Origin: a virus
DNA length: 64,000 bases
IMG/VR virus record: IMGVR_UViG_3300020159_001521
Location: 49,681-113,680 of that record
Strand: one strand, 5' to 3'
Position 1 is the first letter of the stretch. The number at the start of each line of letters is the position of its first letter. The notes below the pieces were generated by a model that saw only the letters and a list, made by a program, of their open reading frames with translations, made no database searches and was not told where the DNA came from. Shown here in pieces: positions 11,440 through 48,035 of this stretch. A program made the translations under genes and the position numbers.

Positions 11440-11757
11440 ATGAAACTAAGATTTGGTGGTAGCTTACAAATAGGAGATCCTATTTTTATTAGTTATGGAA
11501 GCAGTGTAGACTTTGGACTATTTGCAGGATATGGAAAAGGAACTATACAATTTTATACTCCCACTGGTATAATATACCAATACGAAAACGCAATAGGAAA
11601 AGACAAAAAACCAAAGTTCTGGAAAGCATACATACATGGACAGAATATAGAATATAGAGTGGTGAAGGTGAATCCAGAAGTGCTATACAATCGTGAAGAC
11701 ATAGAAAACTACGAGAAAGCAATTGCAATTTTAAAACAAGAAAACATAATCAAATGA
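11440..11757 (+). CDS. hypothetical protein
   Basis: ORF in the operon. Confidence 0.65.
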   Translation: MKLRFGGSLQIGDPIFISYGSSVDFGLFAGYGKGTIQFYTPTGIIYQYENAIGKDKKPKFWKAYIHGQNIEYRVVKVNPEVLYNREDIENYEKAIAILKQENIIK

Positions 11758-14256: not shown

Positions 14257-15717
14257 ATGAGTAATTTCACACTTAACTGGTTTAAAAGACAAGCAGAACT
14301 AGAAAACCTCATCATCGAAGAACAAAGACTGAAGAACGAGATTCTTCGTACACAAGCTGGATTTACAACATCCATTGAAACAACACAAATCAATTATGGC
14401 AATCCTTACAAAGCTGTAAAGTTTGTAAACGGTGTAATAGTTGTTGTTATGCATGACGGTACAATCCTTACAAAGAATGGTGCTACAGAAGCTGATTTCA
14501 ATATAGTGACAAATGCTAAACTGGAATCAACAATATATGATGTTATGGGCTCTTCAGATATCAAAGCTGAAAAGGCTAAACATGATGCAGAAGTGGCAAG
14601 ACTTAAATCTCTTCAGGAAGGAATCAAGAAACTAGAAGGATTAGATGATTTTGAGATAGAAGGTAACTCTGTAAAGCTGGCTGGTACAGGCAGAACTATG
14701 CCTCAGCTCCTTGTTGAGAAGTTCATTGAGATTGTAGATCATTATGATGGAGATCCATATAATAATGTACAAGACGATGAAGAGTATCAAGCTCTTAAGA
14801 GATTCTTCATGTGGTGCTGCCTCAATCCTAGGGCTGAGGTTGCAAATGACCTTTATGATTTCCTTACGAAGAACAGCTTCAGGATTACCAAACAAGGTTT
14901 CTTTGCTGCTCTTAGGAATGTTGTTACATTACATGGAAGTAATAAACTTGTACAGTTTGTAAGCAATGTGTACACTAAGATGAAAGCTGTATGGAAGAAG
15001 AGTCCAAACAACTATGAAGTGTATCTGAAGGATGGTGAATATTCATTCATACACATTGACGACACAGTTACCACTGAAATCGTAGAAGGTGAAGAATGGT
15101 ATGATGAAGACCTTGAAGAGTATGTACAAGAAGAAGATGGAGAAGCGGAAGTGATGAGAACAGACCTTGGTGAGCACATTGGTAATCTTACAGAACTCTA
15201 TCTTGATTTGCCTAACAGACATGAGAACAGGTTTACAGATGAGTACACACGTACATTTGACATTCGTATTGGTCAAGTGGTGAACATGCCTCCAAATGAG
15301 TGTAGCTGGTCTACAGCTGATTGTGCTCATGCAGGATTACATTTCACTTCTGACGAGATTCATTATGTAGGATGTGGTGACCAGTCTGTTCTTGTACTCA
15401 TCAATCCTATGAAGGTGGTGGGTATTGGTGCACAAAAGGGTAGGTGTTATGAATATCTTCCTATTATGACTGTCAGCCGTGATGAGGCTACAGAACTTCT
15501 GCATGACCTGAATTTCAGCACTCTTGAGATTGACGATGCTTACGCAATTCGTGAATTGGAAAATCTTGCTGAGAAGGCTAAAGAAGGATTTGTGATAGAA
15601 ACTAAGAAGTATGAGTTCAATGTTCCTCAAATGAGTTCTCAAGACCTTGAGAATATTGTAGAATCATTGGAAGAAATGCGTAGCACTTTGTCCAGTCGTA
15701 TATCCATTATTGATTAA
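14257..15717 (+). CDS. rIIB: rIIB-like protein
   Basis: LNP..EV..DLYDFL, ITKQGFF, CAHAGLH, VLINP..VV, KGRCYEY motifs; follows rIIA. Confidence 0.8.
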   Translation: MSNFTLNWFKRQAELENLIIEEQRLKNEILRTQAGFTTSIETTQINYGNPYKAVKFVNGVIVVVMHDGTILTKNGATEADFNIVTNAKLESTIYDVMGSSDIKAEKAKHDAEVARLKSLQEGIKKLEGLDDFEIEGNSVKLAGTGRTMPQLLVEKFIEIVDHYDGDPYNNVQDDEEYQALKRFFMWCCLNPRAEVANDLYDFLTKNSFRITKQGFFAALRNVVTLHGSNKLVQFVSNVYTKMKAVWKKSPNNYEVYLKDGEYSFIHIDDTVTTEIVEGEEWYDEDLEEYVQEEDGEAEVMRTDLGEHIGNLTELYLDLPNRHENRFTDEYTRTFDIRIGQVVNMPPNECSWSTADCAHAGLHFTSDEIHYVGCGDQSVLVLINPMKVVGIGAQKGRCYEYLPIMTVSRDEATELLHDLNFSTLEIDDAYAIRELENLAEKAKEGFVIETKKYEFNVPQMSSQDLENIVESLEEMRSTLSSRISIID

Positions 15718-33486: not shown

Positions 33487-36400
33487 TTAGTATATTTTAT
33501 AATAGTTGTTTATGTTGGATTGTATAGGGATTCTAGAAGGTAATTGATTTGTGGTATACAATATAATCTCTTGCATTTCTCCATTGAATGTAAATGACCC
33601 ACCAACACCACCAAGAGTAGCAAATGAAGATGCCGTATTAGATGTAGTTCCGTCTGTCAAGAAAGATGTATTTGATCCGTCAATTACCCCATTAACATAT
33701 TGGAAACCATCGCTCGTTAAGTATTGAATAGCGGAATAAAGTAAAGCTTGAGCATTTATCGATATCGACCCAGTAAGAGCACTAACTGTATCTCCGTCTA
33801 ATCTTCTAGCATCTATTTTATATACAGATCCATCTATATACGGACCAAATCTAACAGTACCCGAAGAAGTACTGAAGAATATTATTACCTTAGCTATAGC
33901 AGCAGCTGGGTTATTGGTAACAACTGAGAACATATTAGCATATCCAACATTCTGAAGTGTATTCAATCCATTTGGAATATTGAAGTTGTCATTAGTTCCA
34001 TCAAAGAAAACAGCTGGTTTTCCGTTCTCCGTATCCACCACCCCAGCATTCACTATCCTCGGTTGGTTAGCAGCAGTTCCTTGAACAGCATTTCTAGCAT
34101 TACCACTCTGATCATACCACGTTGTTACAAATCCACTGTTAGCACCTACGAAGGCTACTAATGAGGCTATATCTAAATCACCCCCGAACGTGCCATATAT
34201 ATCCCTCTCTACGTTATCACTACTCCTCCTCACTCTGATCAATGGACCAGTGTAGGCAGAGCTGAGGTTGCGGAGAGAATATGCTGCACTAGCTCCACTG
34301 TAGTTATCAAGTAGTGCTGTTCCGTTTCCTTGCCAGTAGATTTGGTAGTAGGAATTGATGTTGGAAGATATGGTTGGTCTGTTGGATAATTGGTTTGACA
34401 TATATAACACAAGCTCAGAAGCTTCTGCGTTTGATCTTTCTAATGCAAGACCTCCTATTAAATTAAATGACGAAGAAAGAGATGTGTACGTTAATGGACC
34501 ACTAAGAGAAAGTTGAACTCCGTTTAGAAATGCATTTGCAGATGAGCCTCTAGAAAAACCGCTTGTCAGATTAAATGTAGTTGATAGTTCTGAAACTGTA
34601 TAATAATAGTCAGTACTACCATCATTTTGAAGATATAAATTACCATCAGAATATCTACCAAAGAATACTGATGGTGGTCCAGTAACTGAACCAACTCCAA
34701 ATCCTATAGCAGACGGACTGTTACTTCTTGCAGTATAAAACATAGACCAATCCAAATTGCTTGTTTCAATGTTCGGCATAGTAAAACTATCCGTCCCATC
34801 AAAGAACAAAGATGGTTTATTCCCCTCACTCTCCACTCCTCCACTGTTAACTATTCTTGGTTGAGAAGCTGCTGTGGCTTGAATGGCATCTCTTCTTTGA
34901 GAGACGGTGGTGGTGGTGGCTGTGTAGGGTTGTAAAGTACCTTCACTTAGTTGAGCGCCCCAAATGTATACTCCCGAACCAACAACTCCAAGATAGCTAA
35001 AAGTAGATCCGTTTGTCAATAGCCCACATTGAATAATGTGAGCACCAGTTTTGTTAGTGTTTCCAGTTACTGTACATCTGTACCATCCATCTCCAACTGG
35101 AGTTATCGAATTTCCCAAATTTACACTAGCTCCAGTGGCATTACTTGAAAATACGGTTCCATTAGATAGATTAAATACGCATCCAAAGTAATCAAATGGG
35201 GCACTACCTAAAAACATACCAACACTAGCAAAAGTTCTTTCTGCAGCTTTCAAATAAAAAGATACAGTAAATGTAGATGCTGTTGCTATGCTATATGTCT
35301 GCCCAATCCAGTGCTGGTCATTTACAGCAGTTTCATTAAGTTTATCAGCAGTTAGTGTTCCATCGGGAGCAGCTGTACTGTCTTGAGTGATAGATGAATT
35401 AGATTTACTCCAACTAGCATTCTCAAATGTTTGACTCTGCAACAACAGATTCTGATAGTTATTATCTTGTGTGTACCACTTAGTGACAAAAGCATTTGCG
35501 CCATTGACAGCTGTTGTGGTGGTTGGGATGTAGGGTTGGAGGATGCCCGTGTTTAGTTGTGCTCCCCATACATATATCCCCGAACCAGCGGTTCCAATAT
35601 AAAATCGTTGAAATGAATTATCAAGTATTTCTATTTGTACAGAATGATTTCCAATGGTGTTAGTGTTGCCAGTGACAGAACATCTGTACCAGCCATTCCC
35701 AACAGACTGAATAGATGAAGATATAAAAACTGCAGCTGCATCACTTCCATTTTTATATACAGTACCATTTGACAAATCAAAATAAGAGTTAAAGTTGCTA
35801 TATGTGCCGCTACTTAGATAAAAAACTACAAATATTTTTGACCTCTCTGCTGCTTTAGCATAAAATGACAATGTGTAAGTAGATGATGCAGGAACATTAG
35901 ATCCTTGATATGCAGCATGTTGCCCACCAACAGCAGTCTCCGTAATCTTATCAGCAGTAAGTGTACCATCGGGGGCTATAGTAGCATTTGCAGTTATAGT
36001 ACTACCAACTTTAGTCCAAACTGCATTCGTAAAATCCTCCGAGTTCGTCAAAAGATTCTGTCCACCCGTAAATGACAACAGAGAAGCTACATCCAAATCA
36101 CCACTGTATGTACCACCAATATCTGTCTCTGCGTTGTCAGAGCTTCTTCTCACTCTTATTAATGGTCCTCTGTATGAAGAGGATAGGTTTCTTAATGAAT
36201 AAGCAGCTGCTGCTCCCCCGAACTGATCCAATAACCCACTACTAGCACCAGTCCAATGGGTTTGGTAATAAGCTCCTATGTTACGTTCGATATCTGCTCT
36301 AGTGGATGTACGGTCTGAGTTGTATACAATGATCTCACCAATCTCACCGCCCATAAAAATTTCATTAGCATTTAGTGAACCTCTTGTTGCTCCAATTTGA

Positions 36401-38109
36401 GTAACTGGATTTACAGAACCAGCAACAGTAGTTGAAACAGATGCCCCAGCTATAGAATCAGCAAAAGCAGTTATTGAAGAACCCGTAAATATACCACTAG
36501 CAACAAGATAGTTTTGTAATGAAGTATAAGCAAAAGCAGTTGGAAATGTAGTTGCATCAGCTCTTTGGGCCTCAAATCTTTTATTCGAGTTATTCAAATA
36601 AAGCAGAGCATCTCTAGAGAAGTTAGAAGAAGAACCTCTACTATAAATAGTGTTTGTAACAACGGAAGGAATAGTGTTAACTGCTGTAGAGAATATAGAC
36701 CAAACTGGTAGAGCTATATCTGTAACACTTAAGAAATCATCCACACCATCAAACCTTATCGAAGCCTTCCCATTCTCTCTCTCTATAACTCCACCACCAA
36801 CAATTCTTGGTTGGTTGGCAGCTGTAGATTGAGAGGCGTCTCTTCTGAGGATGGCTGCAGTTGTGGTCACTTGATAGGGTTGTAGCCAACTAGATTGAGA
36901 GAGTTGAGCGCCCCAAATGAAAACGCTTTCTGAAGCAAAAAGTTGAAACGAAGCAACAGAAGCTACACCAACAGTTAAACATGTTGTACCAACATAAAGT
37001 CTAACCCACCCATTTGGCAATATTTGTCTACCAAAAAAAGCACAACTAGAAGAAATTGCATCTGTATCAAAGTTATAAGTGACTTGAGGATAACCAACAG
37101 AAGCACCCCATTTAGCGTTCATTTGAGCCAAATCGCCACTTAGATCTAAATGTAAAGATACAGTTGATGTAGATGTTTTCTTTATATAAGCAGAAAATGT
37201 GTAAAAGGATCCAGCTGTTTTAGTATAAGTCTGACCTAATCTAGAAACAACTCCCGAAGTATATGTTATAGTGTCTGCAGTTAGAGTGCTGTTTGGTGCT
37301 GTTGTAGAATTTGGAGTGACTGTAGCTATCGAACCAAACCCAGCATTATTAGCCCACGCAGCATTTTCAAATTGCTCAGAAAATGTCAACAAATTCTCTC
37401 CATTACTATCTTGTGTATACCATTTAGTAACAAATCCATCCCCCGAACGGGCAGCACTTATGGTCACTTGATATGGTTGAGCTGTGATGCCAGCGTTTAG
37501 TTGGGCGCCCCAAATTAATAAGTCAGCCGACGAAGTGCTGCTTCTTACTATTGATTGAAAGTTACCAGCAACAGCAACAAATGAAAATGTAAATCTTTGC
37601 CAGTCATTAGTAGCAGTAAAATTTCCGCTTACTATACTCCCATTACACGGAGCCATAGCAAACTGCTGGTTAACACCAGTGTTTGACTTAGCCCAAACAG
37701 ACATTGTGTAACTCTGCCCAACAGTTAACGCAATATTTTGATCTAACCAATAAGGTAAAGCTGTACTAAGAAGCCTAGAAGCTGTATTCCCACCTAATGG
37801 ATCTGTCCCAGCATTTGCGGTTATTGTAACACTTGCCTTACCCCAGCTAGCACTTGTAAATTCTTGACTAACCCTAAACAGATTCTCATAACCAACAAAG
37901 TTCATCAGAGCTGTTTCATCAATTGCACCTCCACTAAATCCAATATCTTGTTCTGCATTATCAAATGATCTTCTCACCCTAACAGCAGATCCACCGTATG
38001 CACTGCTTAAGAGCCTTGTAGAATAGGCTGCTGCAGCTCCTCCAAATGTATCAAGAGGAGGAACTATATTCCCACGAGAAGAAGCAATTATGCCTAATGT
38101 TAAACTCAT
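33487..38109 (-). CDS. large multi-domain lectin-like spike/receptor-binding protein (~1540 aa)
   Basis: Three repeats of AAAYS.R.L...Y.G...RVRRS.DN.E.DI ... W ... QPRIV (LamG/arabinofuranosidase-B-like) plus four NLL..S..F...W...WGAQL modules; likely start MSLTLGIIASS at 38109. Confidence 0.8.
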   Translation of the reverse strand: MSLTLGIIASSRGNIVPPLDTFGGAAAAYSTRLLSSAYGGSAVRVRRSFDNAEQDIGFSGGAIDETALMNFVGYENLFRVSQEFTSASWGKASVTITANAGTDPLGGNTASRLLSTALPYWLDQNIALTVGQSYTMSVWAKSNTGVNQQFAMAPCNGSIVSGNFTATNDWQRFTFSFVAVAGNFQSIVRSSTSSADLLIWGAQLNAGITAQPYQVTISAARSGDGFVTKWYTQDSNGENLLTFSEQFENAAWANNAGFGSIATVTPNSTTAPNSTLTADTITYTSGVVSRLGQTYTKTAGSFYTFSAYIKKTSTSTVSLHLDLSGDLAQMNAKWGASVGYPQVTYNFDTDAISSSCAFFGRQILPNGWVRLYVGTTCLTVGVASVASFQLFASESVFIWGAQLSQSSWLQPYQVTTTAAILRRDASQSTAANQPRIVGGGVIERENGKASIRFDGVDDFLSVTDIALPVWSIFSTAVNTIPSVVTNTIYSRGSSSNFSRDALLYLNNSNKRFEAQRADATTFPTAFAYTSLQNYLVASGIFTGSSITAFADSIAGASVSTTVAGSVNPVTQIGATRGSLNANEIFMGGEIGEIIVYNSDRTSTRADIERNIGAYYQTHWTGASSGLLDQFGGAAAAYSLRNLSSSYRGPLIRVRRSSDNAETDIGGTYSGDLDVASLLSFTGGQNLLTNSEDFTNAVWTKVGSTITANATIAPDGTLTADKITETAVGGQHAAYQGSNVPASSTYTLSFYAKAAERSKIFVVFYLSSGTYSNFNSYFDLSNGTVYKNGSDAAAVFISSSIQSVGNGWYRCSVTGNTNTIGNHSVQIEILDNSFQRFYIGTAGSGIYVWGAQLNTGILQPYIPTTTTAVNGANAFVTKWYTQDNNYQNLLLQSQTFENASWSKSNSSITQDSTAAPDGTLTADKLNETAVNDQHWIGQTYSIATASTFTVSFYLKAAERTFASVGMFLGSAPFDYFGCVFNLSNGTVFSSNATGASVNLGNSITPVGDGWYRCTVTGNTNKTGAHIIQCGLLTNGSTFSYLGVVGSGVYIWGAQLSEGTLQPYTATTTTVSQRRDAIQATAASQPRIVNSGGVESEGNKPSLFFDGTDSFTMPNIETSNLDWSMFYTARSNSPSAIGFGVGSVTGPPSVFFGRYSDGNLYLQNDGSTDYYYTVSELSTTFNLTSGFSRGSSANAFLNGVQLSLSGPLTYTSLSSSFNLIGGLALERSNAEASELVLYMSNQLSNRPTISSNINSYYQIYWQGNGTALLDNYSGASAAYSLRNLSSAYTGPLIRVRRSSDNVERDIYGTFGGDLDIASLVAFVGANSGFVTTWYDQSGNARNAVQGTAANQPRIVNAGVVDTENGKPAVFFDGTNDNFNIPNGLNTLQNVGYANMFSVVTNNPAAAIAKVIIFFSTSSGTVRFGPYIDGSVYKIDARRLDGDTVSALTGSISINAQALLYSAIQYLTSDGFQYVNGVIDGSNTSFLTDGTTSNTASSFATLGGVGGSFTFNGEMQEIILYTTNQLPSRIPIQSNINNYYKIY

Positions 38110-38117
38110 ATAATGAT

Positions 38118-39587
38118 TTATACAGTTATGTCTCCAAATAAATACCACTCATCTGTTCCTATCTTCACAAGAGAAGCACCGCTATATTGAGCAGCGAGTT
38201 TAAGAGCTCCAAGAGCACTTCTCACAGTTACACCTGCTCCTGGAACAATTGATGTTTGTCCTGCTCCATATTGAGCTATGTCTATTTTTGTTCCTATTGG
38301 GAATGTTATTGAGCTGTTTGGTGGAACAGTGAGAGTGTTTGCTGCTCCAACGTTTGTTTCAACCAACTTACCTCTATCAGCCAAAGCAAGTGTATATGAT
38401 GCAGTTTGTCTGTTTGTAGTGATGGTTTCTCGCAACACTCCATTTATTAACAATCCACCACCTAGAAAATTATCAGCTGTACCTTGTCCATATAATCCCC
38501 AGCCTGTGTTATTAGACCATTCAATACTCCTCCAATCTGCTGCAGCGGTCAATGTAGGTTGAACATATAAACCTCTTGTTATACCATTTGCCCCTCCTGC
38601 TTGATTAATAGTAGGATTAAGCAATGCCAAAATTGTAGTAGCGTTTCCACTTGTAGGAGCAAAAGTTTCAGTTCCCTGTATAACTATATTACCACCACTT
38701 GTTCTTACAACATTTGCACTATGGTTTGCAAGTAATACATTCGTTGCATTAAAATATGTTTGTAAAGTGATTACATTACTACTCGCCCAATTTGCTTCTA
38801 ATAAAATATTTTGATTTTGTTGTGCCCTTAAAGTATTTGAGTTAAGAGTAGGAGTTGTTAATGAACTTCTTGAAAATGCATCACCATTATTAGATATTTG
38901 AAATTGGGTAACTCCACCTAAATTTCTGGTAATAAAATGTAATGTATTTAAATTATCTGTTCCTGTAATATTTAAAATATCAGTAAAAAGACTTGTTCCA
39001 TTAACCTGCAATCTCTGACCACCGTCTAAGAATGTACCTCCGTTTTGAAGAACTACATTTCTTGTAATACCGAACATAGTCATTCCTACTGTGTCATTTG
39101 TACCGAATGTTAATGGTGCAGTTGTTCCTGTTAAGAATGTAAGACCGTTTACAAGTGATGAACTTGACCGAAACCTTGCTTGATTAGCTGATAATGTACT
39201 GTGATTTGAGCCGAATACTTGTAATGATAAACCTCCTACATTGCTTAATATAAGTATATCTGAGATAGCACTTGTTCCTGTCGATGGATTACTTATAAGC
39301 ATTCTTACAGTTCCATCAACTGTTTTTACTATACTTAAATCATTTGAAGGCGTATTAGTCCCAATCCCCAACCTCCCTTGAGCATTATCCCAAAACAGAT
39401 TATTAGATCCTGTAATGTTTGTAGCAGCATTCCAGAATGTCACTTGACCATTTGCACCACCACCTGTAATAGTGCCACCACCACCACCACCGCCTGAAGC
39501 AGCTGTTACAGCAGCGAGTCTATCAAGTTGCATTGATATATTGTATAGGAGATTAGATTCCTGACTCCAACCTATTTGTCTTGGCAT
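38118..39587 (-). CDS. fibre/adaptor protein
   Basis: GRLGIGT repeats; C-terminal QTASYTL..AD...FPIGT...QYGAG...W.LFGD module. Confidence 0.75.
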   Translation of the reverse strand: MPRQIGWSQESNLLYNISMQLDRLAAVTAASGGGGGGGTITGGGANGQVTFWNAATNITGSNNLFWDNAQGRLGIGTNTPSNDLSIVKTVDGTVRMLISNPSTGTSAISDILILSNVGGLSLQVFGSNHSTLSANQARFRSSSSLVNGLTFLTGTTAPLTFGTNDTVGMTMFGITRNVVLQNGGTFLDGGQRLQVNGTSLFTDILNITGTDNLNTLHFITRNLGGVTQFQISNNGDAFSRSSLTTPTLNSNTLRAQQNQNILLEANWASSNVITLQTYFNATNVLLANHSANVVRTSGGNIVIQGTETFAPTSGNATTILALLNPTINQAGGANGITRGLYVQPTLTAAADWRSIEWSNNTGWGLYGQGTADNFLGGGLLINGVLRETITTNRQTASYTLALADRGKLVETNVGAANTLTVPPNSSITFPIGTKIDIAQYGAGQTSIVPGAGVTVRSALGALKLAAQYSGASLVKIGTDEWYLFGDITV

Positions 39588-39589
39588 AA

Positions 39590-40555
39590 TTAATAAGTTT
39601 TATTTAATACAAAAATATCACTGTATATACTGTTTCCTGCATTGTTACTTCCCCACTGAACTGTGATGTTTAATGTATTACTGATTGTGGTGTTAAATGT
39701 TGTATTGTTAACTACGTTAAATGCAAATCCTTGAACTGATGCATTACTTGTTTTAGCGTAATGGAATGTTCCTAAAGAGACGATAGATGCTACGCCAGCT
39801 GTTCCTAGTTGTCTGATTGTGAAATCTACGTTTAAAGAAAACACATCATTTGTAATATTTGTAATTGGTTGAGCTCCACTGTCTAATAAAATGACAGATC
39901 CTGTTTTCACTCTAATTCTTATAGTTTGGTTGTTGGCAGCGTTTAACACTCCTCCCATAATAGCTCTGAAGCTATCTCCAACAGCAAATCCATTAGCTGG
40001 AACACTTAATGTTCCTACACCTCCATTTATTAATGATGTCTCTACTGTTGTTCCTGTTACGGGAGTGCTGTTAGCTGTCTCAGCAAATAGTCCACCACTA
40101 CTTATAGGACCTGGAGGACCTTGAATACCTTGCACACCCTGAACACCTTGTATTCCTTGAATACCTTGAATGCCTTGAGGACCCTGAGGTCCTTGCAGAT
40201 CACCTACATCATCCCAAGTGGTTGTTGCTGTATTCCATACATATAGAGAACCATCAGATTCAATAATCCAAGCTGTGCCTGCTGCACCAGGACTACCGCC
40301 AGCTCCTGCTAAGAATGCTGCAAGAGTGGGATAGGAACCAAGCACTGTAAGAGCAGCACCTGTTTCTCCTTGAGGTCCTTGCACACCTTGGATTCCTTGT
40401 ATACCTTGAGGACCAGGAACACCTTGAGGACCTTGTGGGCCTACAATAACAGATGCAACATCTTTTATGAGAAGGTCTAAATTAAGCCAGCCCTTGTAAC
40501 CGTTGCACGGTTTACAAACACTTTCCCAAAATCCAGTTTTGACGAACGTAGGCAT
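39590..40555 (-). CDS. collagen-like fibre protein
   Basis: Two G-X-Q triplet tracts (GPQ/GIQ/GVQ) and a C-terminal beta-rich domain. Confidence 0.85.
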   Translation of the reverse strand: MPTFVKTGFWESVCKPCNGYKGWLNLDLLIKDVASVIVGPQGPQGVPGPQGIQGIQGVQGPQGETGAALTVLGSYPTLAAFLAGAGGSPGAAGTAWIIESDGSLYVWNTATTTWDDVGDLQGPQGPQGIQGIQGIQGVQGVQGIQGPPGPISSGGLFAETANSTPVTGTTVETSLINGGVGTLSVPANGFAVGDSFRAIMGGVLNAANNQTIRIRVKTGSVILLDSGAQPITNITNDVFSLNVDFTIRQLGTAGVASIVSLGTFHYAKTSNASVQGFAFNVVNNTTFNTTISNTLNITVQWGSNNAGNSIYSDIFVLNKTY

Positions 40556-40638
40556 CTTAATTTATTAAAATGTTATAAAGGTATGATAATTGATATTATC
40601 TACAATGTCATTAATAAAATTTAGTTTAACCAAAAAGA

Positions 40639-40767
40639 TTAATTTCCCTGTCCTCTGTATTTGCTAACAGGTTTATCTTTTGGTCCTCTGCTCTTTTGAG
40701 CTTTTCCTTTCTTTCTTTTTCCAAAGGTGAGCTTCTTAGACTCTCCTGATGATTTTAACTTTGCCAT
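40639..40767 (-). CDS. small Lys-rich protein (42 aa)
   Basis: Translated manually: MAKLKSSGESKKLTFGKRKKGKAQKSRGPKDKPVSKYRGQGN. Confidence 0.65.
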   Translation of the reverse strand: MAKLKSSGESKKLTFGKRKKGKAQKSRGPKDKPVSKYRGQGN

Positions 40768-40785
40768 AACTTATTGATTTTCAAG

Positions 40786-41538
40786 TTAATTTTTTCTCTT
40801 ACCGTCATCTTGAGTGGCATATTTAATACCCATAATTGTTCCTACTATTGAAAAAGCATTTGTTAATAGTACACTAAACATGTTACTCCAAGTTGAACCA
40901 ATGATCTGTGTATCCTTACCAGTGATCATAGCCATCCAATATAAAGCGGTTGTTATAACACCCACCCCAACAATTACTATCAAAGCAACCACTACAATTG
41001 TCTTAATTAACTCGGATTGACTTTTCTTCATCAGTACATCCAAGTCATTTAACGCAGCATTCTTCTCTACTTCAATTGCATTTTTCAGTTGCTGTGATTT
41101 ATCTAACTCAGTTTGCAAATCTTTTGAAAGAGCGTCTATTTTATTTTTGCTATTGACAGTTTCTGTTATGTCAGTGGCAATCTTCATAACCTTAGTGATA
41201 GTACCGCTTTCATCAAATATTGGGTTGTAAGTTGCTTGTAGATAGATAGAACTTCCGTCAATTTTCTTTCTCTCAAACTCACCTTCATAGAACTTACCGT
41301 TCTTTAAGGTTTCCCAAAACTTTTTATACTCATCCGATTTTGAATATTCGTAGCTAACAAAAATGCTATGGTGTTTTCCAATGAGTTGTTTGTGGTCGCC
41401 CTCCTCATATCCCATCGCTGATAGGAATATAGAATTCATACCTAATATATAACCGTCAAGGTCAAAATATATAATGGCATTACTTCTATTGATTGCTTCA
41501 AGCCTACTTAATAACTCTTCTTTAGATAGGTTTTTCAT
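40786..41538 (-). CDS. PAS-PAC sensor domain + coiled coil + two transmembrane helices
   Basis: AINRSNAIIYFDLDG.I...N..FL..MGY...GKHHSIFV...FWETL..G....GEF.R...G..I.LQATYNPI.D..G...KVMKIATDIT, as in BdlA/chemoreceptor PAS domains; two hydrophobic C-terminal segments. Confidence 0.88.
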   Translation of the reverse strand: MKNLSKEELLSRLEAINRSNAIIYFDLDGYILGMNSIFLSAMGYEEGDHKQLIGKHHSIFVSYEYSKSDEYKKFWETLKNGKFYEGEFERKKIDGSSIYLQATYNPIFDESGTITKVMKIATDITETVNSKNKIDALSKDLQTELDKSQQLKNAIEVEKNAALNDLDVLMKKSQSELIKTIVVVALIVIVGVGVITTALYWMAMITGKDTQIIGSTWSNMFSVLLTNAFSIVGTIMGIKYATQDDGKRKN

Positions 41539-41814
41539 TTATTGAGCTGTTACGCTATCAATAACTACACTATCAACAATCTCAATATCTGTAATTTCTA
41601 CAGGAACAGCTACACTATCAGCAGGAGCAGTAGCAAAAGCATCGCTTACAAAGTTGATAATTGCTTCAAAGTTCAATGACTCTTCGCTAATATATCCTTT
41701 CTGAGTAGCAAATACTCCAGCAGCAATAACCACTGCAGATAGAATGATTACAATAGGCTTTTTACCTTTGAACTTACCGATTAAGGGCAACAGTTTACTT
41801 ATTAAATTTTTCAT
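41539..41814 (-). CDS. small membrane protein with acidic tail
   Basis: Basic N-terminus, one TM segment, DSV repeats; its stop abuts the PAS gene ATG. Confidence 0.7.
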   Translation of the reverse strand: MKNLISKLLPLIGKFKGKKPIVIILSAVVIAAGVFATQKGYISEESLNFEAIINFVSDAFATAPADSVAVPVEITDIEIVDSVVIDSVTAQ

Positions 41815-41818
41815 ACTT

Positions 41819-42076
41819 TTAATTTATGTTTTCGTTATTATCTTTTTTGTTAATGAACTTATCTACAGATGCTATACCAAAGGAACCTAAAGTTAACCAC
41901 AGGAATGAATTGAATATAAAGTCTTGCACTACTAATTCCTTACCTAAAGCACCAGTGATGATGTCAGCAAAAGCAAACCCAACCATCATTAGGAATGCTA
42001 AAAAACCAATGAATGATTTTTCATTTATGTTGTTGTCATCACTGAATAGCGATTCAAAGAACTTCTTCATTTTCAA
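41819..42076 (-). CDS. putative holin (2 TM)
   Basis: Two TM helices and a charged C-terminus; immediately after the endolysin. Confidence 0.65.
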   Translation of the reverse strand: MKMKKFFESLFSDDNNINEKSFIGFLAFLMMVGFAFADIITGALGKELVVQDFIFNSFLWLTLGSFGIASVDKFINKKDNNENIN

Positions 42077-42538
42077 TCATTTAAAGGGTACGTAAGATGT
42101 CTTTCCACCAGATTTAACAGCCTTCAAGATTTGCTTACGTTGCTTACCAGTTGATTCATAAGATACATGTACCCAGTCAGGATTATTGTCTGTACCAAAT
42201 TCCCAAATAAGTTGATCAAATACTAAGTTATTCTTAATAAAATCAAATATTTGTTTGTTAGTAATAGAGGTGCCATCCATATCCAGGTCAATCGCTTCGC
42301 CCGAACAATGTTGTGAACTTAAACTTCCCCCAATCGCAACATTGAGCTCTTTTGATCTGTAGCCAGAACTGATGTGGATGGGCACTTTAAAATGTTCTCT
42401 TATAGGCTCAAATATATTCTCAGCCAGCTTCTTAAAGTTCTCCAGATGTTCTCCAGAAGGAGTGTTGTTAATACCTTTACGTTTAGCAGTTTCACTTCTG
42501 CTCACCTCAGCTAGAGATAGATGTTTTGAAATTTGCAT
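42077..42538 (-). CDS. endolysin, peptidase M15 family
   Basis: ISSGYRS..LN..IGG..SSQH..GEAID, DQLIWEF, WVHVSY. Confidence 0.9.
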   Translation of the reverse strand: MQISKHLSLAEVSRSETAKRKGINNTPSGEHLENFKKLAENIFEPIREHFKVPIHISSGYRSKELNVAIGGSLSSQHCSGEAIDLDMDGTSITNKQIFDFIKNNLVFDQLIWEFGTDNNPDWVHVSYESTGKQRKQILKAVKSGGKTSYVPFK

Positions 42539-42544
42539 AGTTTA

Positions 42545-43156
42545 TTATTTTTTAAGTTTTATTTTCCAATAAGCTCCTGCACCATATTGTAGAGCACCTT
42601 GTGTATTTATTCCTAAAGAACCTCCAAACAGAAAATCATTTTTAGTTTTTAGAATTGCTCCCATACCTATTTGATTGATTTCAGGAGATGCTTGGATGGT
42701 TCCTCCTACATATAGTTGCGTTACTTTTTTTGCAGGTAGGGTGATAGTTTCTTTTATAATAGGATAGCGAATGTTCACCTGTGAAGACCTACCTGTAATA
42801 ATGTTCTTTTGAACAGTGTCTGTAATAAATACATACCCATTACTGTCTATACGTATACTATCTGAGTGGATGTTCTTGGCTAGTAGTGTATTTACTACCT
42901 CCTGATATTGAATAAGAAGTTTGGCGTAGTTAGTATCTGGTATATAATGGTTGATTATAGTGTCATGTGATTCCACCTGAATAGTGTTGATCACTTTTGG
43001 TTTACTAACTATCAAAGAATCCTTGACAACCCATGTAGTATCTCTCACCACTGTAGGCACTCCAGGATCTACAGATTGGGAACATTTCTGAAGAAGGATG
43101 GTTGCTAGTAATACAACTATTAGTATTTTAAAAAAGTTGTTCTTTATAAACTGCAT
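42545..43156 (-). CDS. putative spanin-like membrane protein
   Basis: N-terminal TM ending LLQKC, DT/DS-rich linker, C-terminal amphipathic beta strands; upstream of the endolysin. Confidence 0.55.
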   Translation of the reverse strand: MQFIKNNFFKILIVVLLATILLQKCSQSVDPGVPTVVRDTTWVVKDSLIVSKPKVINTIQVESHDTIINHYIPDTNYAKLLIQYQEVVNTLLAKNIHSDSIRIDSNGYVFITDTVQKNIITGRSSQVNIRYPIIKETITLPAKKVTQLYVGGTIQASPEINQIGMGAILKTKNDFLFGGSLGINTQGALQYGAGAYWKIKLKK

Positions 43157-43157
43157 A

Positions 43158-43469
43158 TTAACCTTTTAGATTATAATAAATAGTAGAGATGTACTGACCT
43201 AGAAGCAAAAGTGCACCTATGATGGATATAACCCAGTAAACCTTCTTTCTGAAGTATTCATCTCTTTGTTGCTTCTTCTCAAGAATATAAATCTTTTCTT
43301 TCAACACTTCAATATCATCCACAAAGCCTCCTCTCTTTGTTAAGGAGTTACCAAGGATTGCCTCAACCACTTGATTCAATTTTTTATCGATAGAATCTAT
43401 TTTCTCTTCCATCTCTGTGAGTCTAATTTCCATCTGAGAAAGTTCTGCTGTTATGTTGCTGTTTTCCAT
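43158..43469 (-). CDS. coiled-coil + C-terminal TM protein (holin/antiholin-like)
   Basis: Heptad-rich N-terminus and a single TM; first gene of the lysis cassette. Confidence 0.55.
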   Translation of the reverse strand: MENSNITAELSQMEIRLTEMEEKIDSIDKKLNQVVEAILGNSLTKRGGFVDDIEVLKEKIYILEKKQQRDEYFRKKVYWVISIIGALLLLGQYISTIYYNLKG

Positions 43470-43478
43470 GAGTAGTTA

Positions 43479-46400
43479 TTAGTAGAAAGCGTTCCAAGCG
43501 GTTCCGTTATATCCGTAGTGTCTATTAAGGTCTGTATCGTAAACTATCAACCCAGCTGCTGGCGTAACAATTGCATTGCGTTGAGTGGTGGTCATACGAG
43601 GAGGTAAGAAACCTTGTGTAGTTGAATCCACTTGAAGCTTAGCTGAAGCAACTGGTGTAGCAACACCCACACCAACACTTGCTGCAAAGTAATTCTTATC
43701 ATCAGCACCTGCTTGGTATATACCCCATCTATTTGTTAATACAACAGTTGTACCGCCCCACTCTTTCAAATCATTAATTCTTACAGCAGCATAATCAGTG
43801 AATGTCACTGTACCTGTCAAGCTTGCTGGGTAAACACCCTGTATAAAGAGTGTAGCACCTTTATCTACGGTTCCACTATTTGCTCCACTTGCTTGCATTT
43901 GAAGCTGCATAACAGACAATGGTCTGTACCCTGTTGTGGCACTGTTGGCCATTGTAACAGTACCAGTGGTGTCAAATTGTATGTTTGCTATATTAGCAGA
44001 GCCTGACCAAAGAGCATCTCCAAAAAGTGTAGTGGCTCCATTAAATCTGAAATAGTTAGCTCCTGTAACTGATGAGTAAACATTACCATCTGCACCACGG
44101 TTTCCTGCAGGAATATTCAAAACCTGTGAACCAAGAACACTTATTGTGTTAGCATTTGTAAAATTGGCTGCAAGTACTGTAGGACTCACTGTAAGCTTAC
44201 CGTTAAGTAAGTTCTGCGCACTACCTATGCCAAGCAATCCATATCCTCCATTATTACTCCATTCTACAGAGCGCCAATTACTTTCACTGACAACATTGTT
44301 TAGTACAGGGTTTATATAGAGACCTCTTGTAATAGCGTTTGCTGTTCCTGTCTGATTGATGTTTGGACTTAGTTCTAACGTATTGTATGCTATTGTTCCA
44401 GATACTGGAGCATATGATGCTGCTATTTGAATTGTTCTAGGCTTTGTAGCATGTGTTGCTCCAAAAAGATTAATTGATGTACCAAGGGAAGAGCATGATG
44501 ATACACTAAATGTTCCGTCTGTTGCATCAGTTTTATATATATATCTCTTAGAAGCACCTTGTACCCTAAACCAAGCACCATCTCCTGCATATACATCTCC
44601 AGAATCTGCAACTTTCAGACCTACGGATGCACTAGAGTTTTGTACAATAAGTGAGTTTGTTGTAGCGTCATTTCCTACACCAGAAATATGAAGTCTACTT
44701 GTTGGGGTTATTGCTATTCCTAAGTTTCCACCTAAGTAGTTATTAGCAGTTCCTGCTCCGTACAACCCCCAGCCTAAGCTATTTGACCACTCTATAGAAC
44801 GCCAATCTACAGCACTTGTTATCGTTGGATTAACATGCACACCTCTAGTAATTCCTGTTGCTGTTCCACCTTGAGCAATAGTTGGCTGAATTGAAAATGC
44901 CGTATACCTTATATCAGTTTGTGTTGGAGTGAATGACGATGCTGTTCTGATTCCAATTGCGTGCACACCAGTAGGAAGACCAGTTGTTGTGTACACTGGT
45001 GATAAATCAATACCAACCAAATCCTCACTATTTGCAAAAGAGCTTAATTGAGATGTTACATGAAATCCTCTTGCTACATTAGAGGCAGCTATGACGGTGT
45101 TGTTAAGGAATAGCTTATTGCCTGGACTAAATGTAAACCCAGCATTCCCTGCTTGCGATGATGCTCCTGTCCAATATGTCACCTGACCAGATACGCCAGT
45201 CCCTGTTATGTTTCCTCCAGGAATTGCTTGTGTAGAAAGAACACCATTTGCATCAGCAACCACCATTCTGCTTCCAGTGCCCTGCAGATTAGATAGAGTG
45301 TTCACTCCTGTAGTCTTAAATGTTCCTAAAATCTCAAAGAGATTTCCAGAGTTTGTAATTCCACCTACAGTGATGTTTCCACCAGAAAGAAAGTACATTC
45401 TAGAACCTGATCCACTTTCATTAATTGCTAAGTCGTTGTTGAACGGACTTATATCCCATGTTTTATTGGCTGAAGATGAGTTTACTATACCTATAGCTGA
45501 GGCAGTGTTTGTAGTACTGACAATCATTCCACCGCTAGTGTTAGCAAGTATTTGGAACGCATGACTGTATGTTCCTGTAGTTGGCGTTGGTATTGCTGTG
45601 TTAGTATTTACAAGAACACTTGTGCCGTTGTCATATACCAAGCTGTTAACTATTGAGCTTGTTCCTGTGGCTTTCGGAACATATCCTGATGTCAAAGCTC
45701 CTGTAATAAAATTTGTAGTGGCGCTTGATATCCTAAATTTAACATTTGTACCATCAAACCATAAGTCACCATTAGCTGGTGATGTTGGAGTAAAGCCAGA
45801 AGTGGCTAAGTTTAATTGAGCCTCTGCAACACTGTTTATACCTATGTTTACATAAGCACTAGTTCCAGAAGATGTACCTGACCTTACCTTTCCAGGTATT
45901 ACAGCATTACCTGTACCAAAATTAACCGTACCGTTGCTTCCAGTACTAAGATTTAATGTAGATGCATTTATCGTAAGAGCAGTGTACGCAGATGTTCCCC
46001 TGTTGTAGCTTATAATTAATCCTGTAGAGCTACCTGTTAAATATCCAAACTCTAAACCAGCGCCTGTTGTTGGTAGTGTTGAGTTGGTTGTTCTCATTGT
46101 ACCTGCAAACTCAGATGGTCCGCTTCCTGCAGATATTGCTCCAGTTATCTTTGCACTTCCTGCTACCTGAAGTCTATTAATACCATCGTCTGTTCTTGTT
46201 CCTAACAACAAGTTACCACCTAACCAAGTTGATACAGTGGATGTGTTTCCTATAAATGTTCTGTTAGAATCAGCAATTGCCTCTCCTATAGAATCAGAAC
46301 CAATGAATATGTTATTTGAGCCAGTAGTGTTAGCAATAGCACCTCCAGCATATCCAGCCCTATATCCTAGTGCGGTGTTGCTCGCCCCACTAGTGTTATC

Positions 46401-48035
46401 AAGTAGTGCACCTGTGCCTATAGCAGTGTTATTTCCAGCAGTAGTGTTGTCTAAAGCTTGAGCACCAAATGCAGCATTGTTACTTCCTGTAGTATTTACA
46501 CGTAGTGCGTCAATTCCAAATGCGGAGTTTGTTGAACCAGTTGTATTACCCCTAGATGCTCTGTAGCCAAATGCTGAATTCTGAAGACCTACTGTGTTTA
46601 ATAATAAAGCAAGGTTTCCTACAGAAGTGTTTTGAGCTCCAGAGGTGTTAGCATTAAGAGATGATGCTCCTAATGCAGTGTTTGTGACTACATTATTAGC
46701 ACCACGACCAACAGATACACCATTGACAGATATTACCTTGGTCGTGTCATTGTATGTAAAATCTGCACTACTTGAAATCGAAGAAGTTCCATTCCAAAAT
46801 GTTACCTGTCCTGCTGTTCCTGAACCAGTTGGAAAACTATGAGTGAAGAACTCATAAGCAGTGTTACTAGCATTCCTTCTTAATAACTGATTTGCTGTAC
46901 CAGCAACTCCTGTGAATGCTGATGTTGCGTTACCAACAAGTATTCCAGTTAATGTTGATGCTCCACTACCTCCACGACCTACAGCTAATTGTCCTGTCCA
47001 TCCTAATGTAAGAGATGTTGCTCTTAGTAATGATGTAGCTGGTGTACCACCCAAGGTGAGTGTTACGTTTGTGTCATCTGTTTTTGTTAATGCTGCACCA
47101 AGTGTTAGGTTATATGCAGTGTCCCAATTTGTTTGTAATAAGTTTGTTGGAAGAGAATAACCTGGTGCAAATGTTATTGCTATGTTTCCAGAAGATGTTA
47201 CAGCTGAACCTACAGCAAATCCTGTTGGTACAGTTGCATTTACGCTTGTAACAGTTCCTACAGACCAACTTCTGCTAGCACTCAAGTCGAACGAAGTGCC
47301 ATTTATACTCAATGTAGTGGTTGTAGGTACACCGCCTAATCCAGATAGTGTATAGTTTGGTATATTTAAAACTCCTCCAATATACGTTGCTACACCAGAA
47401 CCTCCTGTAGTAGTCAGGCTTATAGCGGCTCTAGATCTAGCGTCTGTATAGTATAGATTAGTTCCTTCTGTTATGTTTGTTGTAGTGAGGTTAACTGCAC
47501 CTGTAAGACCATTGACGGATGTTACTGAGTCAGTGTTGTCCACCTTCTGCCAAACAGTGCCATCAAATATAATCCAATCACCTACGTCCCATGAAGCTGT
47601 ACCATTAATGTTAGTAGTACCAGCTGTGCTCACTATGTAATAATCACCACCAGTACCAACACTACTTACAATAGTGGGGGTGTTAGTGGCAGCATTCCAT
47701 GTTCCTTTATAAGTTGATCCTCCAGCTAGACCATTTATCTGTCCTTGTATCTTACCCATTGCTGTGAGTATAGAATCGGCAGATGTGATAGCTCCAGAAG
47801 TTACAGAAAGTCCTGAAAGTGTTTTACTTATTACGGATAAATTTGACAAAGTTACATTCAGTAATCCACTACCAGTTGTGGTAACTTCTCCTGTTAGCCC
47901 AGTTACAGTTCCTGTTGTAGGAGTTGTCCATGCAAGTGTTGTTCCATTTGAACTTAACACTTGACCAGCTGTTGCTGCCACTGGAACACTTGCTGTTATT
48001 ATATTACCATCTACTAATCCTATGCTGTTTGCCAT
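43479..48035 (-). CDS. long tail-fibre-like protein (1518 aa)
   Basis: G/T/S-rich; YKGTWNA module; NTA.G..AL repeats; C-terminal DSTTQGFLPPRMT...GLIVY module. Confidence 0.8.
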   Translation of the reverse strand: MANSIGLVDGNIITASVPVAATAGQVLSSNGTTLAWTTPTTGTVTGLTGEVTTTGSGLLNVTLSNLSVISKTLSGLSVTSGAITSADSILTAMGKIQGQINGLAGGSTYKGTWNAATNTPTIVSSVGTGGDYYIVSTAGTTNINGTASWDVGDWIIFDGTVWQKVDNTDSVTSVNGLTGAVNLTTTNITEGTNLYYTDARSRAAISLTTTGGSGVATYIGGVLNIPNYTLSGLGGVPTTTTLSINGTSFDLSASRSWSVGTVTSVNATVPTGFAVGSAVTSSGNIAITFAPGYSLPTNLLQTNWDTAYNLTLGAALTKTDDTNVTLTLGGTPATSLLRATSLTLGWTGQLAVGRGGSGASTLTGILVGNATSAFTGVAGTANQLLRRNASNTAYEFFTHSFPTGSGTAGQVTFWNGTSSISSSADFTYNDTTKVISVNGVSVGRGANNVVTNTALGASSLNANTSGAQNTSVGNLALLLNTVGLQNSAFGYRASRGNTTGSTNSAFGIDALRVNTTGSNNAAFGAQALDNTTAGNNTAIGTGALLDNTSGASNTALGYRAGYAGGAIANTTGSNNIFIGSDSIGEAIADSNRTFIGNTSTVSTWLGGNLLLGTRTDDGINRLQVAGSAKITGAISAGSGPSEFAGTMRTTNSTLPTTGAGLEFGYLTGSSTGLIISYNRGTSAYTALTINASTLNLSTGSNGTVNFGTGNAVIPGKVRSGTSSGTSAYVNIGINSVAEAQLNLATSGFTPTSPANGDLWFDGTNVKFRISSATTNFITGALTSGYVPKATGTSSIVNSLVYDNGTSVLVNTNTAIPTPTTGTYSHAFQILANTSGGMIVSTTNTASAIGIVNSSSANKTWDISPFNNDLAINESGSGSRMYFLSGGNITVGGITNSGNLFEILGTFKTTGVNTLSNLQGTGSRMVVADANGVLSTQAIPGGNITGTGVSGQVTYWTGASSQAGNAGFTFSPGNKLFLNNTVIAASNVARGFHVTSQLSSFANSEDLVGIDLSPVYTTTGLPTGVHAIGIRTASSFTPTQTDIRYTAFSIQPTIAQGGTATGITRGVHVNPTITSAVDWRSIEWSNSLGWGLYGAGTANNYLGGNLGIAITPTSRLHISGVGNDATTNSLIVQNSSASVGLKVADSGDVYAGDGAWFRVQGASKRYIYKTDATDGTFSVSSCSSLGTSINLFGATHATKPRTIQIAASYAPVSGTIAYNTLELSPNINQTGTANAITRGLYINPVLNNVVSESNWRSVEWSNNGGYGLLGIGSAQNLLNGKLTVSPTVLAANFTNANTISVLGSQVLNIPAGNRGADGNVYSSVTGANYFRFNGATTLFGDALWSGSANIANIQFDTTGTVTMANSATTGYRPLSVMQLQMQASGANSGTVDKGATLFIQGVYPASLTGTVTFTDYAAVRINDLKEWGGTTVVLTNRWGIYQAGADDKNYFAASVGVGVATPVASAKLQVDSTTQGFLPPRMTTTQRNAIVTPAAGLIVYDTDLNRHYGYNGTAWNAFY

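Follow-up and report, generated by a model that had tools for sequence, protein, structure and literature searches.

A stretch of 64,000 nucleotides (the window), corresponding to bases 49681-113680 of the 113,680-bp IMG/VR virus record IMGVR_UViG_3300020159_001521, carries within a phage lysis cassette a gene for a 250-residue protein in which a PAS sensor domain is connected by a long helix to a hairpin of two transmembrane (TM) segments. The protein belongs, as the form with a single PAS domain, to a large and apparently undescribed viral family. We suggest that it acts as an accessory, signal-gated module of lysis timing and not as the primary holin, a reading that we regard as evenly balanced between right and wrong. 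Judging from sequence comparisons, the protein probably tunes host lysis to an intracellular signal. The observations behind this reading concern the anatomy of the protein, the viral distribution of its relatives, their linkage to lysis cassettes, the modular sensor inputs, the optional presence of the gene and the purifying selection acting on it.

A PAS domain joined to a transmembrane hairpin

The gene and the parts of its product are the following (window coordinates):
40786..41538, minus strand: gene for the PAS, long-helix and two-TM-hairpin protein, 250 amino acids, ATG start (open reading frame [ORF], Pfam PAS matches, AlphaFold model)
41161..41475, minus strand: PAS domain, residues 22-126 (PAS_9, E 3.8e-12)
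41011..41160, minus strand: connector helix, heptad-rich, predicted cytoplasmic, residues 127-176 (model and invariant columns)
40816..41010, minus strand: two-TM hairpin, residues 177-241 (hydropathy and invariant columns)
40789..40815, minus strand: short charged C-terminal tail, predicted cytoplasmic, residues 242-250 (translation; low confidence at the end of the model)

Four Pfam models (PAS_9, PAS_3, PAS_4 and PAS) scored above their cut-offs across residues 19-128, PAS_9 reaching 46.8 bits against a cut-off of 27. The generic PAS S-box model TIGR00229 scored 54.1 against 22.9 and was the sole NCBIfam match of the protein. No kinase, MCPsignal, HAMP, GGDEF, cyclase or other output family was found with Pfam. 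A hydropathy scan placed two membrane segments in the C-terminal part, with peaks at residues 181-199 and 220-238. In the AlphaFold model (51 relatives in the alignment; predicted local distance difference test score 76.8), a five-stranded PAS fold spanning residues 21-123 (strands 21-25, 30-34, 84-91, 97-108 and 114-123) leads into a single helix, residues 125-206, which runs on without a break through TM1; after a turn at 207-209 comes another helix, residues 210-247. The first-pass annotation of this DNA, made from the letters alone, had described a PAS domain, a heptad-rich linker and two C-terminal TM segments with no kinase, chemoreceptor or cyclase output; Pfam, hydropathy and the model all bear out this description, and the motifs quoted at the time (AINRS, GKHHSIF, YNP and VMKIATDIT) are found in the translation.

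The invariant columns of the alignment concentrate in residues 159-241. The connector ends with a conserved juxtamembrane motif (D165 L166 ... K172 Q174 E176); in the hairpin, TM1 and TM2 are separated by a loop of about 14 residues with WSN at its end, and TM2 contains T226, N227, F229, S230 and G233xxxG237. TM2 is closed by a KYA motif, nine residues past which the ORF stops. An N-in/C-in topology is likely, given the cytoplasmic PAS domain, the basic residues preceding TM1 and the K/R-rich tail following TM2. Comparison with 58 orthologues gave ratios of non-synonymous to synonymous substitution rates (dN/dS, with dS saturated) of about 0.02 for the PAS domain and 0.08-0.09 for helix and hairpin; by this measure, all three parts are under strong purifying selection.

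The solved structures nearest to the PAS domain were the flavin-adenine-dinucleotide-binding PAS of MmoS (3EWK; E 1e-9, 26% identity, root mean square deviation 2.6 Å), NifL (2GJ3) and light-oxygen-voltage (LOV) domains. Foldseek returned a probability of 1.00 to many PAS and LOV entries, and LOV-kinase chimeras matched the long helix in addition to the PAS domain. Identification as a LOV photoreceptor was rejected: in the alignment to phototropin LOV, the adduct-forming cysteine of the GXNCRFLQ motif is replaced by Ser58, within the window motif GKHHSIF. H56 and H57 are nearly invariant among the relatives. The NifL equivalog model scored 29.7 bits against a cut-off of 242, and all NCBIfam equivalogs fell far under their cut-offs. 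Identification as a methyl-accepting chemotaxis protein (MCP) or as the aerotaxis receptor Aer was also discarded, there being no MCPsignal or HAMP match and only nine residues after KYA; the label "methyl-accepting chemotaxis protein" attached to homologues is a Joint Genome Institute (JGI) source annotation only. In a quick, unrooted tree the window PAS grouped with the first PAS (PAS1) of a two-PAS form of the protein, apart from the second (PAS2), with Shimodaira-Hasegawa-like approximate likelihood ratio support of 97-98. A derivation of the single PAS as a PAS1/PAS2 recombinant of this 370-residue form, considered on account of BLAST matches to both repeats, was dropped after the tree. 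As a side observation, an 8.2-kb "Bacteriophage sp." contig from a human faecal sample (MT836939.1) matched the PAS domain in two places (44% identity over residues 4-136) and had no hairpin; related PAS domains are thus present in other phage-labelled contigs outside the hairpin family.

The hairpin is the constant part of a viral family with interchangeable inputs

Searching 5.8 billion proteins produced 4,903 matches, the best 120 listed being 367-377 residues long and 70-79% identical. A 370-residue metagenomic homologue showed 79% identity over 238 residues, and four long homologues that were inspected had the order PAS-PAS-helix-hairpin. At least 282 IMG/VR contigs carry close relatives, in 250- and 370-residue forms. 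When residues 128-250 were compared by phmmer with 1.84 billion representative sequences, 99 clusters were recovered, 70 of them at E <= 1e-10; in these clusters the hairpin match is always C-terminal, in proteins ranging from about 100 to 371 residues. The family signature consists of the end of the coiled coil, a juxtamembrane D-L...K-K-x-Q-x-E-L-I, TM1, a loop ending in W-S-N, a TM2 reading T-N-x-F-S-I-x-G-T-I-x-G, and K-Y-A. The signature columns are invariant or nearly so and all are present in the window protein; TM2, GxxxG included, is nearly invariant on every face. No Pfam family covers the hairpin module and the family is defined here by three alignments made in this analysis, a library model being absent. 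The only library family touched by the coiled coil and hairpin is phrog_1544, of unknown function: 16 of 60 hairpin-family members match it (best E 3e-5), the window protein itself reaching just E 0.0084 with no single stretch passing alone.

What precedes the hairpin varies: one PAS, two PAS, a GAF domain or, most often, a conserved N-terminal domain of about 60 residues. The GAF fusion is represented by a cluster of seven sequences from several independent contigs. Fusions to SOUL and TsaD fragments were single sequences on contigs of about 1 kb and were treated as unverified.

The short form, made of the 60-residue domain and the hairpin, was found on more than 544 IMG/VR viral contigs, some exceeding 200 kb. 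HATPase_c, PAS and Response_reg predominate in a Pfam tally of its neighbours. By BLAST, a histidine kinase and a receiver of about 143 residues lie directly upstream in 58 of the 69 short-form loci with enough upstream sequence, often with 4-nt overlaps between genes. Some of the kinases carry GAF as well as PAS; the receivers match the receiver family alone, and no output-domain family appeared in the tally. Two examples, from a series including loci L090-L169, are:
L090:4692-6561: kinase, receiver and short hairpin protein
L260:4992-7936: kinase, receiver and short hairpin protein

A kinase-receiver-effector operon is therefore a property of the short-form relatives and not of the window protein, which represents the one-piece version. 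The window PAS shares 35% identity over 120 residues with the PAS domain in a phage histidine kinase from one hairpin operon. None of 84 PAS-fused loci had a receiver detectable by BLAST. The whole 113,680-bp genome contains no receiver domain, and its single HATPase_c match is the rIIA-like gene, so that the sensor must here be wired directly to the hairpin. Because the same hairpin takes either a one-piece input (fused PAS or GAF) or a three-piece input (kinase, receiver and docking domain), its sequence relationships mark it as the likely output of a sensory pathway. The suggestion that the membrane part serves as a signal-output module gains much from this range of inputs.

Nearly all members of the family are viral. 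In the ESM Atlas, the clusters closest to it are made up of viral sequences to 100%. When 185,579 species genomes were scanned with a pattern, eight loci came up, two of which (L086 and L088) proved to be ordinary PAS proteins lacking the hairpin and were left out; the six true members all occur in metagenome-assembled genomes, belonging to six different phyla or classes. The four two-PAS members among them have an endolysin homologue within 2 kb in every case, and gene-by-gene inspection of two (L082 and L083) identified lysis cassettes. The first-pass annotation would have been undermined by homologues that were mostly bacterial and unlinked to lysis genes; the distribution found is the opposite.

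The gene stays with endolysins of different classes

In 81 of 86 loci of close relatives (84 of the 86 being PAS-fused), the same strand encodes an endolysin homologue no more than 2 kb away. In at least 55 of the 86 the hairpin gene directly adjoins the endolysin gene, and in about 12 more the two overlap by a few bases. The endolysins belong to different classes (M15 in 42 loci, GH19 in 25, GH24 in 10 and PG_binding_1 in 4), and the hairpin gene may stand either upstream or downstream of them. Pfam searches on sampled loci identified three unrelated endolysin types (M15, GH19 and Phage_lysozyme) along with PG_binding_1 proteins. One locus has two tandem endolysins, Phage_lysozyme and M15, just 3' of the PAS-hairpin gene (L026:8983-9906).

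The association recurs with the other inputs. Two of three GAF-hairpin loci have a GH19 endolysin within about 0.5 kb. In L260 the gene order is multi-TM protein, GH19/PG-binding endolysin, GAF/PAS kinase, receiver, hairpin protein, M15 endolysin. Endolysin families are the commonest annotated function in the flanks of 61 kinase-receiver-hairpin units (141 distinct genes), and an endolysin was detectable by BLAST within 1.5 kb of 25 of 64 such units, a count that is a lower bound. The weight of the linkage evidence is carried by the rearrangements and the endolysin replacements, not by the counts. Membership of the gene in phage lysis cassettes, initially proposed from its position in the window alone, is upheld by this persistence through changes of gene order and endolysin class.

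The lysis cassette of the window

The source record has direct terminal repeats and a completeness rating of 100%, and represents an uncultured phage. Its genome encodes a DNA polymerase, helicases, a ribonucleotide reductase, a UvsX-like recombinase and rIIA- and rIIB-like proteins. Very large tail-fibre genes flank the lysis genes, which are encoded on the minus strand. In order of transcription, the genes preceding the PAS-hairpin gene are:
43158..43469, minus strand: XhlA-like 103-residue coiled coil with C-terminal TM segment, first gene of the cassette (phrog_937 "hemolysin", E 7.6e-5)
42545..43156, minus strand: 203-residue protein with N-terminal TM segment or signal (hydropathy)
42077..42538, minus strand: endolysin, Peptidase_M15_3 (Pfam E 2.8e-19; phrog_894 endolysin, E 3.8e-37)
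41819..42076, minus strand: 85-residue holin-like protein with charged tail (hydropathy peak at residues 22-40 and a weaker second hydrophobic stretch)
41539..41814, minus strand: 91-residue single-TM protein with acidic C-terminal half, its stop abutting the start of the PAS-hairpin gene (hydropathy)

ORF positions, Pfam, PHROGs and hydropathy agree with the neighbour order and the zero-gap junctions (42077/42076 and 41539/41538) first reported. The 85-residue protein has 56 distinct homologues in related loci and is the best holin candidate of the cassette; it matches no holin family of Pfam or NCBIfam. The 91-residue protein gave a weak match to Phage_holin_10 (E 0.029, under the cut-off), and homologues of it adjoin the hairpin gene in loci L006, L020, L063 and L071-L073. 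Homologues of the XhlA-like gene stand directly upstream of the hairpin gene in L008, L010, L024-L026 and L036.

For the 203-residue protein no Pfam or NCBIfam family was found, and PHROGs gave only a weak match of unknown function. Its N-terminal hydrophobic segment ends near a cysteine, possibly as part of a lipoprotein signal, and the C-terminal third is rich in glycine and aromatic residues; these features make it a candidate outer-membrane or spanin-type lysis component. Homologues with 30-66% identity are present in L002, L015, L031, L037 and L074. On the other side, 18 nt 3' of the PAS-hairpin gene, a 42-codon ORF (40639-40767, minus strand) could encode a very basic, K/R/G-rich peptide matching no family; homologues 48-78% identical lie near the hairpin gene in L002, L031, L036, L037, L040, L059 and L076.

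The cassette is bracketed by an ORF of 1518 codons (43479-48035) and a collagen-repeat fibre gene (39590-40555). Farther along, a long internal repeat occurs at least three times in a giant tail-fibre-like ORF (33487-38148, minus strand, 1553 codons), and every copy begins with the motif G-G-A-A-A-A-Y-S ... R-V-R-R-S-x-D-N. A scan of the interval 39400-43700 revealed no terminator, and promoter-like sites were no more numerous than in shuffled sequences; both results fit co-transcription of the PAS-hairpin gene with the flanking late genes but are no proof of it. The replication-side arm of the window contains the rIIA-like gene (11754-14051, plus strand; phrog_612, E 1.6e-58) and the rIIB-like gene (14257-15717, plus strand; phrog_609, E 1.6e-15), which give this phage a further set of genes from membrane-associated "lysis inhibitor" families.

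The gene is missing from about half of the sister cassettes

Sister cassettes were defined as loci with at least 80% identity to the window M15 endolysin and at least 2.5 kb of sequence on both sides. The hairpin gene is present in 26 of the 50 cassettes so defined and missing from 24, most of which retain the 85-residue two-TM gene beside the endolysin. In other phages (L022 and L083), the hairpin gene adjoins a holin of the Pfam Phage_holin_4_1 family. No holin family of Pfam, PHROGs or NCBIfam matches the window protein or 60 of its relatives. A paralogous origin of the hairpin from the neighbouring 85-residue protein was considered and rejected (hhalign probability 2%).

In its general features, the 250-residue protein resembles a holin: it has at least one TM segment and a charged C-terminus and is encoded beside an endolysin. 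A cytoplasmic part of 175 residues would make it atypically large for one, and homology to a holin family is lacking. Its absence from 24 of 50 sister cassettes and its co-occurrence with Phage_holin_4_1 point, indirectly, away from a hole-forming role required for lysis. Like an antiholin, it is accessory and presumably not needed for lysis: only some of the sister M15 cassettes have it, and its gene always points the same way as the lysis genes. The varied companion holin candidates (the 85-residue family, Phage_holin_4_1 and others) argue against a single specific antiholin partner.

A proposed mechanism and its alternatives

We infer a scheme whose every functional step, from ligand and topology to target and direction of effect, is put forward conditionally. 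The cytoplasmic PAS domain, with its NifL/MmoS/LOV-like fold, would read an intracellular cue, most plausibly by binding a cofactor or small ligand that reflects the redox or metabolic state; the redox or O2 signal of the first-pass annotation is a plausible guess. The state of the PAS domain would travel down one continuous helix that becomes TM1 of the near-invariant inner-membrane hairpin, N-in/C-in, and the conformation or oligomeric state of the hairpin would then advance or delay the triggering of a separate holin, with release of the M15 endolysin as the consequence. Because holin candidates of unrelated kinds and endolysins of four classes are found alongside this one hairpin, we favour a holin-independent route, for instance an altered energisation of the membrane, a signal that every holin responds to; sequence-specific binding in the manner of an antiholin seems less likely.

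Several points weigh against the proposal that the protein is an accessory regulator of lysis timing. No characterised homologue was found, a full-text literature search returned no publication describing such a protein, and the sole library link is the weak match to phrog_1544, a family of unknown function. A tblastn search of 50,697 deposited phage genomes with the whole protein and two short-form members recovered no hairpin and three PAS-only matches. On the sensor side, the LOV cysteine position is a serine, and our own inspection of the alignment showed that the LOV arginine, asparagine and glutamine positions are not retained either. The sampled loci come from related phages, and their counts are not independent events; for 39 of 64 kinase-receiver-hairpin units, BLAST detected no endolysin within 1.5 kb. 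Accessory late genes are known to insert into lysis cassettes, and adjacency could mean shared timing and not shared function. Holin-type proteins are not usually as invariant as this hairpin. Finally, one kinase-receiver-hairpin unit (L087:6242-8348) lies in an 89-kb, apparently cellular contig of a Bdellovibrionota metagenome-assembled genome, with prkA, DUF444 (yeaH), spoVR, fpg, NUDIX and GDSL lipase genes as neighbours and no lysis gene nearby. This copy looks like a sporadic acquisition, since only one of 91 genomes of that Bdellovibrionota order has the unit.

Some of these points would be accommodated if the hairpin were a sensor-driven membrane effector unrelated to lysis, active in superinfection exclusion or host membrane physiology or as a signalling anchor, and carried as a moron by cassettes tolerant of late insertions. 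The gene is optional, the hairpin shows no similarity to known lysis proteins, the Bdellovibrionota copy sits in a cellular context, and most kinase-receiver-hairpin units have no detectable endolysin as neighbour, other neighbours being QueF, dUTPase and nucleotide kinases. We nevertheless judge this explanation unlikely, if deserving of attention: 81 of 86 close relatives remain within 2 kb of an endolysin despite rearrangement and endolysin replacement, the association reappears in GAF fusions and in the three-gene units, around which endolysins rank first among the flanking functions, and the cellular copy seems sporadic. An altogether different origin, as the decaying remnant of a chemoreceptor-like or Aer-like host gene that lost its output domain and has no function in the phage, could be read into the JGI label on homologues, the weak match to structure 8DIK and the PAS-linker-two-TM order, which resembles the N-terminal half of Aer. 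We give it hardly any credence: it is contradicted by the strong purifying selection in all three parts and by hundreds of intact viral orthologues of fixed length, the hairpin has a conserved motif of its own that is virtually absent from cellular genomes, and no trace of MCPsignal or HAMP follows in the few residues past KYA.

In a further alternative, the 250-residue protein would be the holin, of class II topology (a charged tail and an N-in/C-in hairpin), and the PAS domain would gate hole formation. Two TM segments, a short charged tail and direct adjacency to an endolysin gene are what such a holin would show; the small and polar residues and GxxxG of TM2 are invariant, as in helix-packing holins; and in some loci, such as L038 and L041, this is the sole protein with two clear TM segments beside M15. 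However, the latter loci also encode small single-TM proteins that could be holins. The 24 sister M15 cassettes lacking the gene presumably lyse their hosts by means of the 85-residue two-TM protein, the gene coexists with Phage_holin_4_1 holins elsewhere, it has no homology to any holin family, and near-invariance over divergent phages is atypical of holins. All told, we find a gated holin distinctly improbable. The original annotation had left open an environmentally gated holin or a lysis-timing regulator: the conserved place in lysis cassettes and the signal-output character of the membrane part are upheld, and the holin identity is not supported.

Relation to known systems and significance

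Lysis timing sets phage fitness. To our knowledge, the short list of its regulators comprises T4 RI and RIII together with the dual-start antiholins, none has a recognised sensor domain, and only T4 lysis inhibition answers an outside cue, namely superinfection. By analogy, T4 lysis inhibition appears functionally closest to the system proposed here. Just as the antiholins RI (periplasmic) and RIII (cytoplasmic) do with holin T, a non-essential accessory protein encoded in or near the lysis genes would turn a signal into changed holin timing. RI is able to act from a membrane-anchored state (PMC11413866). The cue of RI is superinfection, sensed in the periplasm, and its target is the periplasmic domain of the holin, whereas the sensor proposed here is a cytoplasmic PAS domain fused to the hairpin; the two proteins have no sequence or fold relation, and the partner holin in our case varies between phages.

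The dual-start antiholins (lambda S107/S105, phage 21 S68/S71) are likewise small inner-membrane proteins, with two or three TM segments, that respond to energisation and set the lysis clock. They are N-terminal variants of the holin, whereas the hairpin is unrelated to the neighbouring two-TM protein and carries a sensor of 125 residues. The kinase-receiver-hairpin operons find a parallel in Staphylococcus LytSR, a sensor kinase and regulator coupled to the holin/antiholin-like membrane proteins CidAB and LrgAB. LytR is a DNA-binding, transcriptional regulator; the phage receivers, in contrast, are only about 143 residues long and match the receiver family alone, so that they must act protein to protein, and the window version has no relay at all.

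NifL, MmoS and LOV proteins, LOV-histidine kinases included, gave the best sequence and structure matches and share the succession of PAS core and long signalling helix, but the output in the window protein is a membrane hairpin instead of a kinase or a NifA-binding domain. The first-pass annotation had ascribed the PAS domain to a type that occurs in BdlA and chemoreceptors, an assignment that we treat as putative. Aer, too, starts with a cytoplasmic PAS domain, from which a linker leads to a hairpin of two TM segments; a periplasmic sensing domain is lacking. The 250-residue protein looks like Aer cut off after the hairpin, and it matched weakly the "Aerotaxis receptor" entry 8DIK (E 6.9e-5). 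Aer, however, continues with HAMP and the MCP kinase-control domain, where the phage protein stops nine residues after the hairpin, and the hairpin, an anchor in Aer, is the most conserved part here.

We see in the window protein a further form of signal-regulated lysis control, and the chance is substantial that it belongs to a phage signalling pathway of a new kind. A wider proposition, which we hold tentatively and rate somewhat short of an even chance, is that phages of lakes and seas possess a private signal-transduction pathway for lysis timing, with a virus-specific hairpin as its output, fused sensors or a histidine kinase with a stand-alone receiver as its input, and a generic action on any combination of holin and endolysin. 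If true, this would be the first lysis clock gated by a cytoplasmic sensor and the first phage two-component system whose output is not transcriptional and lies in the membrane. It would add a new membrane effector family of hundreds of members, absent as a model from the libraries, and provide synthetic biology with a compact, modular sensor-to-membrane switch. Many environmental phages would then read the internal state of their hosts through classical sensor domains, or through a kinase-receiver relay of their own, and couple it to the membrane step of lysis, with a bearing on models of burst size and timing in lakes and oceans.

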